From Eledone cirrhosa (lineage: Eukaryota): DNA of 64,000 bases. Of this stretch, positions 4,238 to 4,430 are shown in pieces. The notes beneath the pieces were generated by a model that saw nothing but the letters and a program-made list of their open reading frames with translations, had not been told where the DNA came from and ran no database searches. The stretch is from the NCBI GenBank assembly GCA_964016885.1, contig OZ024743.1, positions 258,106,001 through 258,170,000 of the forward strand, in the 5' to 3' direction. The stretch's first letter is position 1. Each line of letters begins with the position of its first letter. The position numbers and the translations under genes are program-made.

Positions 4238-4426
4238 ATAGGAACCAGTAAGACCCCGACAGCTGAGCTCAAGCCGTTTCGACGGCTAATTCTCTGAATT
4301 AGCCGTCGAAACGGCTTGAGCTCAGCTGTCGGGGTCTTACTGGTTCCTATTACCCACTCTACTACCTCAAGTATTGAGTACTTTGGTGCGTTATGGTCCA
4401 CCTGGTTCCTTACCACATTTCCTTCG

Positions 4427-4430
<4 letters not shown>
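4238..4430. mobile_element. Mini fold-back of the 49.6-57.4 kb PLE family
   Basis: Arms 4238-4292/4296-4350 with 3-nt spacer. Right arm extends 80 nt to ...ttccttcgtta. Nearly identical to 49611-49745 and 57307-57360. Confidence 0.9.

Follow-up and report, generated by a model that had tools for sequence, protein, structure and literature searches.

The window analysed here, a stretch of 64,000 nt from Eledone cirrhosa, is AT-rich animal-type DNA dense in (TA)n tracts, in which copies of a repeat bearing part or all of a predicted hammerhead ribozyme run into the microsatellite at one of two places. What fixes these two ends is the question raised by the locus. An earlier note on the same DNA had read them as two fixed internal priming sites, one of them possibly measured from the ribozyme or from its ligation junction, and the sites and the measure turn out to deserve separate answers.

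Judging from sequence, the repeats are the insertion ends of a Hydra-type Penelope-like element (PLE). One insertion is full-length (49611-57360), with a direct part that meets an inverted arm at 54682/54683, and its main features are:

49611..54682, minus strand: direct part of the full-length insertion, a partial tandem of 5'-truncated copy, pLTR, ORF and 3' pLTR, ending at the long site
54683..57360, plus strand: inverted 5'-truncated copy, ending at the short site
50896..53064, minus strand: open 722-aa ORF, predicted telomerase-like reverse transcriptase (RT) with C-terminal GIY-YIG endonuclease and Hydra-type motifs

The 722-aa protein carries YRDD at 345 and IY..YIG at 589-605, as expected of a single RT followed by a C-terminal GIY-YIG domain; RWR at 37 and DKT at 117, with GxKF/Y absent, as in Hydra elements (RWK-type for GxKF/Y, DKT for DKG); and CNCPDRSIC at 569 (the CxCx5C linker), CNLC at 667 (CxxC) and CKH at 695 (CxH), while a motif check of the ORF found no CX2-5CxxC. 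Pfam and a PDB sequence search each returned no match for this protein, and its structural model (pLDDT 90) has TERT as its best fold match (3du5, E 1.6e-8). Motifs, ORF layout, the hammerhead in the pLTR and the (TA)n preference all fit membership of the Hydra clade as described by Craig et al. (2021, PMC8557442), with which the studied element shares the single RT-GIY-YIG ORF, the RW(K/R), DKT, CxCx5C, CxxC and CxH motifs, the pLTR hammerhead, the (TA)n target, the arrangement of partial tandem plus inverted 5'-truncated copy, and the one-sided tail. Naiad and Chlamys elements (N-terminal EN+, no canonical hammerhead) were excluded by the C-terminal position of the endonuclease and by the hammerhead. 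Scoring of 7,999 candidates yielded 1,471 relatives, with identity mostly about 40% among the 120 listed; the viral contigs searched contained none. Two details of the insertion are recorded here in their own right: the start of the inverted arm at 54683-54701 coincides with a small inverted repeat within the ORF (6-bp arms, 7-nt spacer), and a G run at the ORF end differs in length among the three copies (50912-50928, 54456-54479, 56130-56140), altering the last codons. Elsewhere in the window, a 379-aa ORF (6418-7557, plus strand) with a weak RT match (Pfam RVT_1, E 9e-5) is apparently a decayed PLE of another clade, and by look the stretches 35857-38798 (minus), 62047-63936 (plus), 45472-47561, 34392-35123 (minus) and 26882-28164 contain ORFs of LINE type, pieces of Gypsy type, one of mariner type and 66 tandem units of 19 bp.

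The ends themselves are seen in the following features, numbered from the predicted cleavage site:

53250..53343, minus strand: type I hammerhead predicted in the internal pLTR, a U3:A8 variant with core UUGAGAA, a stem I of 5 bp and a stem III of 6 bp, predicted cleavage after 53255
53235..53238, minus strand: putative short start site, with TA at +18/+19 and the junction somewhere in +17..+20
53155..53158, minus strand: putative long start site, TA at +98/+99
4239..4293, minus strand: short arm of a mini insertion, a 5'-truncated pLTR piece from -35 to +19 (C17 at 4258), then (TA)n; hammerhead 3' half only
4296..4429, plus strand: long arm of a mini insertion, -34 to +99 (C17 at 4330), the short-arm sequence plus an 80-nt tail, then (TA)n
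10065..10164, unstranded: mini copy, inverted short arm plus the last 46 nt of the tail, with a 3-nt microhomology joint just 3' of hairpin 1
12199..12298, unstranded: mini copy with the same junction as 10065-10164
15587..15973, minus strand: diverged short-ended copy, core C3 with A8
21816..22052, minus strand: diverged copy with a long end and core UUGAUAA; the homologous TA follows the cleavage site by 21 nt, and hairpin 1 spans 21870-21896
8427..8491, minus strand: long-ended copy, tail only, ending at the long site

All five short arms listed in the earlier note do have 19 nt after a predicted NUH site and then (TA)n. Four of their positions stand (4239, 57360, 15587 and 10065), and the fifth, given as 12299, has its position +19 at 12298. 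The claim of exactly 19 nt holds as a common spacing but not to the base: the DNA places the short junction only within +17..+20 (from +16 at 12298), because the element's own TAT overlaps the target. Long arms stop at TTCGTT in six of six cases, as claimed, with ATATA next in five and two extra T first at 12200, and the proposed 80 nt between the ends is borne out by the intact internal copy, in which +19 (53236) and +99 (53156) lie 80 nt apart. These two ends are 2 of the 17 TA dinucleotides in +1..+170 of the intact copy. Two to 30 TA units follow 11/11 ends of the studied family in the window, where all sites are filled ones.

Termini were further mapped, as the earlier note had proposed, via relatives and via four public runs aligned to 52930-53470 (X1, X4, X6 and X20, the last a reduced-representation (RAD) library), and they are not spread over the internal TA dinucleotides. 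Loose (TA)n ends accumulate at 53155 (8,887 of the 22,420 reads aligned from X20; 309, 4 and 3 contigs in X1, X4 and X6) and at 53235 (3,285 reads in X20; 70, 3 and 1 contigs). Ends at 53168 (1,229 reads, 79 contigs) form a third row, which reflects an early break in the alignment of a diverged subfamily and represents its long end, and among the strongest 24 rows shown, beside 445 weaker ones, there is no further TA end on the 3' side. The copy at 21817 has 21 nt from the cleavage site to the homologous TA and a tail duplication of about 8 nt, yet it has the same long end. Copies 10065 and 12298, sharing one inverted junction, may be non-independent. The genomic ends lie on two fixed internal sites 3' of the hammerhead, as do those of PAc, the Poseidon element of Anolis carolinensis, on whose RNA reverse transcription in vitro starts at two internal sites bounding the tail (Frangieh et al., 2024, PMC11167929); the idea of two fixed internal priming sites is supported, and it is the mechanism described there for the Penelope tail. 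As for the opposite side of the copies, short copies tend to have their 5' edge between -34 and -37 relative to the cleavage site (4293/4296, 10121, 12242; reads 53288-53299), which is the 3' strand of hammerhead stem II. Depth drops sharply at 53288-53299 in all four runs, confounded in the RAD run by an AATT site, and the sharp 5' edge at 53288 in X20 was discarded as evidence because it coincides with that site.

The landmark considered in the earlier note is the hammerhead. A type I fold with U3:A8 core can be drawn in two diverged subfamilies, with UUGAUAA as the core of the 21817 copy, and covariation of U3-A8 has been reported for PLE hammerheads (PMC4209133). With the metazoan PLE hammerheads described by Cervera and de la Peña (2014, PMC4209133) the predicted ribozyme shares the type I form in a pLTR, the U3-A8 core and opposite-strand pairs from truncated copies; it differs from their minimal form in having full stems II and III, and from the Hydra rows of File S2 of PMC8557442, which are all C3:G8, in its U3:A8 core and long stem II and loop. 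Rfam gave no match in the window, the predicted hammerhead scoring below gathering thresholds, and the hammerhead and tail regions fold no better than shuffles (z 0.66 and -1.17). A non-LTR retrozyme was considered and rejected, since the mini copies are arranged in inverted pairs, have half of the hammerhead (only its 3' half in the arms at 4238-4430, 10065 and 12298) and form no head-to-tail array of complete type I hammerheads.

It is highly improbable that the short site is set 19 nt from the hammerhead cleavage or ligation junction. The attraction of the proposal is that all five short ends of the window keep the 19 nt despite substitutions. However, in the relatives that have a continuing copy for comparison, the short end shares its last base with that copy at +12, +35, +36, +36, +39, about +42, +51, +51, +55 and +68 after cleavage, and the three other hammerhead families of the window that allow the measurement end at +46, +56 and +58/+62 (B and C counted by eye). 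In three published Hydra consensi, also counted by eye, the ends come 36, 46 and 47 nt after the cleavage site. In the 21817 subfamily, in which no short end was seen, the homologous TA is 21 nt away. Because copies extend across the cleavage site, the template must have been uncut or religated, and in PAc, according to PMC11167929, cleavage is dispensable and hammerhead mutants leave product size unchanged. On sequence comparison, then, the 19-nt distance is a property of the studied family only, kept there because indels are few.

Just beyond each end, in sequence absent from the finished arm and met with only in continuing copies or, for the first, in the tail, sits a bulged hairpin that occurs twice per pLTR. 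It is built of a 4-bp lower stem (GCUC), a 4-bp upper stem with its loop, a 2-nt bulge on the 3' side, and GAGC-ACU:

53203..53229, minus strand: hairpin 1, +26..+52, with an A-U variant as lower stem, an upper stem of 4 bp, a bulge of 2 nt and ACU
53127..53151, minus strand: hairpin 2, +104..+128, present only in the copy continuing into the ORF
4356..4382, plus strand: hairpin copy 1 in the long-arm tail of the mini insertion

The motif recurs among relatives of the element. Our set of 90 related loci comprises 77 metagenome loci, from the best 80 of 321 stretches encoding relatives, and 13 genome-contig loci (L078-L090), Hydra-type elements in contigs of bacterial genome bins that are most likely animal host DNA; several of the 90 share assemblies. 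A structural rule gave 59 sense matches in 43/90 loci, against 6 antisense and 2.5 in shuffles, and the exact pattern GCTC-N8-26-GAGCACT is found in 59/90 loci and absent from 31, many of them cut short. In 31 of 40 hammerhead clusters from the loci a hairpin lies 16-72 nt after the cleavage site, and two hairpins, 55-78 nt apart, occur in 24 of 47 clusters (window included, one duplicate row dropped). Among 41 motifs picked by sequence from 25 clusters, upper pair 1 is complementary in every one (C-G 26, U-A 14, G-C 1), and it pairs only with a bulge of 2 nt, bulges of 0, 1, 3 and 4 giving 2, 1, 6 and 14 of 41. Upper pairs 1-3 exceed all 5,000 column shuffles, which ignore relatedness. Lower stems are compensated as well, with A-U in the studied family and window families B and C, and GCAC/GUGC in L079 and L084. 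Pairs were counted by anchoring, as MAFFT on 54 motif copies left the 5' half unaligned owing to the variable loop (8-26 nt). In the naked local RNA fold, pair probabilities are about 0.1 and 0.2-0.4 for the two hairpins.

By eye the hairpin is also visible in 4/6 new Hydra consensi of PMC8557442 and not in the other two, Hydra-1_Obim and Hydra-1_Amil (incomplete), and a term search of the main text of that paper gave neither 'hairpin' nor 'stem-loop'. No description of it was found in the openly readable papers searched, and one may exist in Repbase or Dfam, in subscription journals, or in supplements on bioRxiv and figures available as images only. Within the window, another bulged-hairpin copy lies at 39701-39723 (minus strand) in a separate repeat. 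There are also four more TA-ended hammerhead repeat families: B (8180-8390, 10742-10893, 49194-49550), C (2399-2935), D (19135-20200) and E (11040-11150), the last a single copy. Families B, C and D form inverted pairs of short and long arms with a hairpin variant 3-4 nt after the short end, and ends of family B share one TA tract with ends of the studied family twice (8390-8428, 49550-49611), as would be expected if one family used the microsatellite of the other as its target. In both mini copies the long arm starts at +54 (10119, 12244), two bases beyond the 3' edge of hairpin 1, via 3-nt microhomology, possibly where protein sitting on hairpin 1 had halted the RT.

The gap from either end to the downstream duplicated hairpin is nearly constant, whereas their distance from the ribozyme is variable. 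The related loci contain 31 (TA)n junctions with a matching second copy, 17 of which were sorted by eye as uninformative (both copies ended or both continued, microsatellite matches, 5' edges). Twelve of the 14 informative junctions, representing as many different families, are found 2-8 nt ahead of a hairpin, and the remaining two lack a scored one, the hairpin of L015 being degenerate by eye and L082 having none. Against a background of 86/321 TA dinucleotides within 9 nt of a hairpin in 24 two-hairpin leaders, 12/14 has a binomial p of 7e-6. The gaps are 5 and 3 nt in the studied family and 4, 4 and 3 in window families B, C and D. A TA occurs 2-10 nt upstream of 39/41 motifs, compared with 51% of background windows, and hairpin spacing matches the tail, at 78 and 80 nt in the studied family. 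It should be noted that termini were taken from exact extension, since the alignment-based table over-extends through AT-rich spacers (gaps 0-1) and includes non-termini, and that for L009, L043 and families B and C distances come from terminus tables or counts by eye and not from the anchored table.

Such regularity bears on the possibility that ends are simply inherited, i.e. that transcription of a finished copy continues into the flanking (TA)n, where the transcript is primed much like a poly(A) tail, the hairpins serving some other role in the 5' leader and the old ends having fallen in an AT-rich stretch by chance. The single junction common to 10065 and 12298, for which this is likely the true account (as for some other mini copies), speaks in its favour, as do the TA-rich region before the hairpin and the far greater number of short than long copies by read depth. 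As a general explanation we consider it improbable, because it leaves unexplained why the ends of 12 separate families fall 2-8 nt short of a hairpin and why tail length follows hairpin spacing. Nor does it account for the 34 hammerhead copies followed by at least (TA)5, in which the run is preceded by no scored hairpin in 24 cases, by one in 10 and by two in none, so that 0/34 end after hairpin 2. In addition, the arms of the 49611-57360 insertion are 98-99% identical to the internal copy that continues past both sites.

A second possibility, unlikely in our judgement though somewhat less so than general inheritance, is that the hairpin is read as single-stranded DNA: the cDNA would pass it, and the GIY-YIG endonuclease would cut the adjacent TA during resolution of an intermediate or in targeting the element's own pLTR. 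Craig et al. (2021, PMC8557442) ascribe the tail to endonuclease resolution, and the tail of the D. virilis element is needed for endonuclease recognition, as cited in PMC11167929. Among 92 motifs, 3 internal G-U pairs were counted against 1 A-C, which would suit either strand, and the motif folds as DNA on both; one continuing copy, L012, has (TA)9 directly before hairpin 2. On the other side, both tail boundaries are RT starts on RNA in the only full-length PLE assayed (PMC11167929), and a loop of 8-26 nt excludes a double-stranded site, though not a single-stranded one.

The reading that we prefer, with a probability of roughly 0.6, is that the RT is guided by the hairpin to the UA template beside it and that the tail arises because the hairpin is duplicated. 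The RNA template would derive from a tandem copy and run past the pLTR into the next unit. The element protein would bind the bulged hairpin (GCUC, short stem-loop, 2-nt bulge, GAGC-ACU), and the 3' end of the nicked (TA)n target would be set on the UA-rich stretch 2-8 nt upstream, where reverse transcription would start, so that the hairpin itself would remain uncopied. Two hairpins in the pLTR would thus provide two start sites, and priming of one target strand per site would give an inverted pair in which one arm bears a tail as long as the hairpin spacing. In so proposing we infer binding of the hairpin by the Hydra protein, recognition of the hairpin as RNA, pairing of the primer with UA and use of each site by one strand. 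Counting against the proposal are the low pair probabilities in the naked fold, the weak strand signal, the two junctions and two of six published consensi with no clear hairpin, and the 31 loci that lack the exact pattern. Furthermore, the ends of many mini copies may be inherited from earlier copies, and Poseidon primes without target homology, so that the clades would have to differ.

Comparison with PAc, as reported in PMC11167929, sharpens this last point. In both elements the genomic tail is delimited by two internal sites that lie 3' of the hammerhead, those of the studied element being known from genomic ends, and in PAc the RNA 3' of the start sites is needed. PAc starts in an AC-rich stem-loop without target homology, and the report defines no positioning element; in the studied element, by contrast, both junctions overlap TAT (TA microhomology), each followed by the duplicated, clade-wide hairpin. 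PLE insertions are described in PMC8557442 as having an inverted 5'-truncated copy and a tail of 30-40 bp on one side, whereas the tail is 80 nt here. Penelope of Adineta vaga (Arkhipova et al., 2013, PMC3846280) likewise has an inverted pLTR and a tail on one arm (31 bp, optional there) and shows palindromes at inverted junctions; its TSDs are clear, while those of the studied element are hidden by (TA)n, and the text of that report as available mentions no hairpin at the ends.

A bolder version of the proposal invokes telomerase, whose register is set by an RNA element next to a short template complementary to the repeat. The 25-nt hairpin and its UA stretch could form a miniature module of the telomerase-RNA type that docks the RT, aligns the (TA)n primer and allows repeated copying of UA before commitment, a notion that we regard as speculative and as less probable than either general inheritance or the reading as single-stranded DNA. 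Hints of TA-repeat addition are the modelled RT fold, to which TERT (3du5) is nearest, templates with up to four or five TA units, and L012:453-502, in which (TA)9 stands between the tail and hairpin 2 of a copy that continues towards the ORF. Unlike telomerase, the studied RT goes on to copy kilobases, and its primer is made by an endonuclease.

The element, its hammerhead, the tail and internal initiation were already known, and the two ends as first described are ordinary for the class. New, as far as the literature searched goes, is the duplicated hairpin that tracks both ends across the Hydra clade, a candidate signal for the start of reverse transcription. For start-site choice and the one-sided tail of PLEs, the in vitro study of PAc found the start sites but not what sets them, and a short, duplicated, covarying element at a near-fixed gap to both sites, kept across proteins of about 40% identity, turns this into a question that can be put by shifting and deleting it. 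Hairpin spacing predicts tail length from sequence, and the hairpin may help to annotate those boundaries of Hydra elements that microsatellites conceal. If the RT binds it, it would provide a small (about 700 aa), telomerase-related integrase system with a compact cis signal. Should the telomerase-RNA-like module prove true, Hydra elements would help to build the TA microsatellites that they occupy, and the module would constitute a portable signal setting the copy start of any attached RNA.
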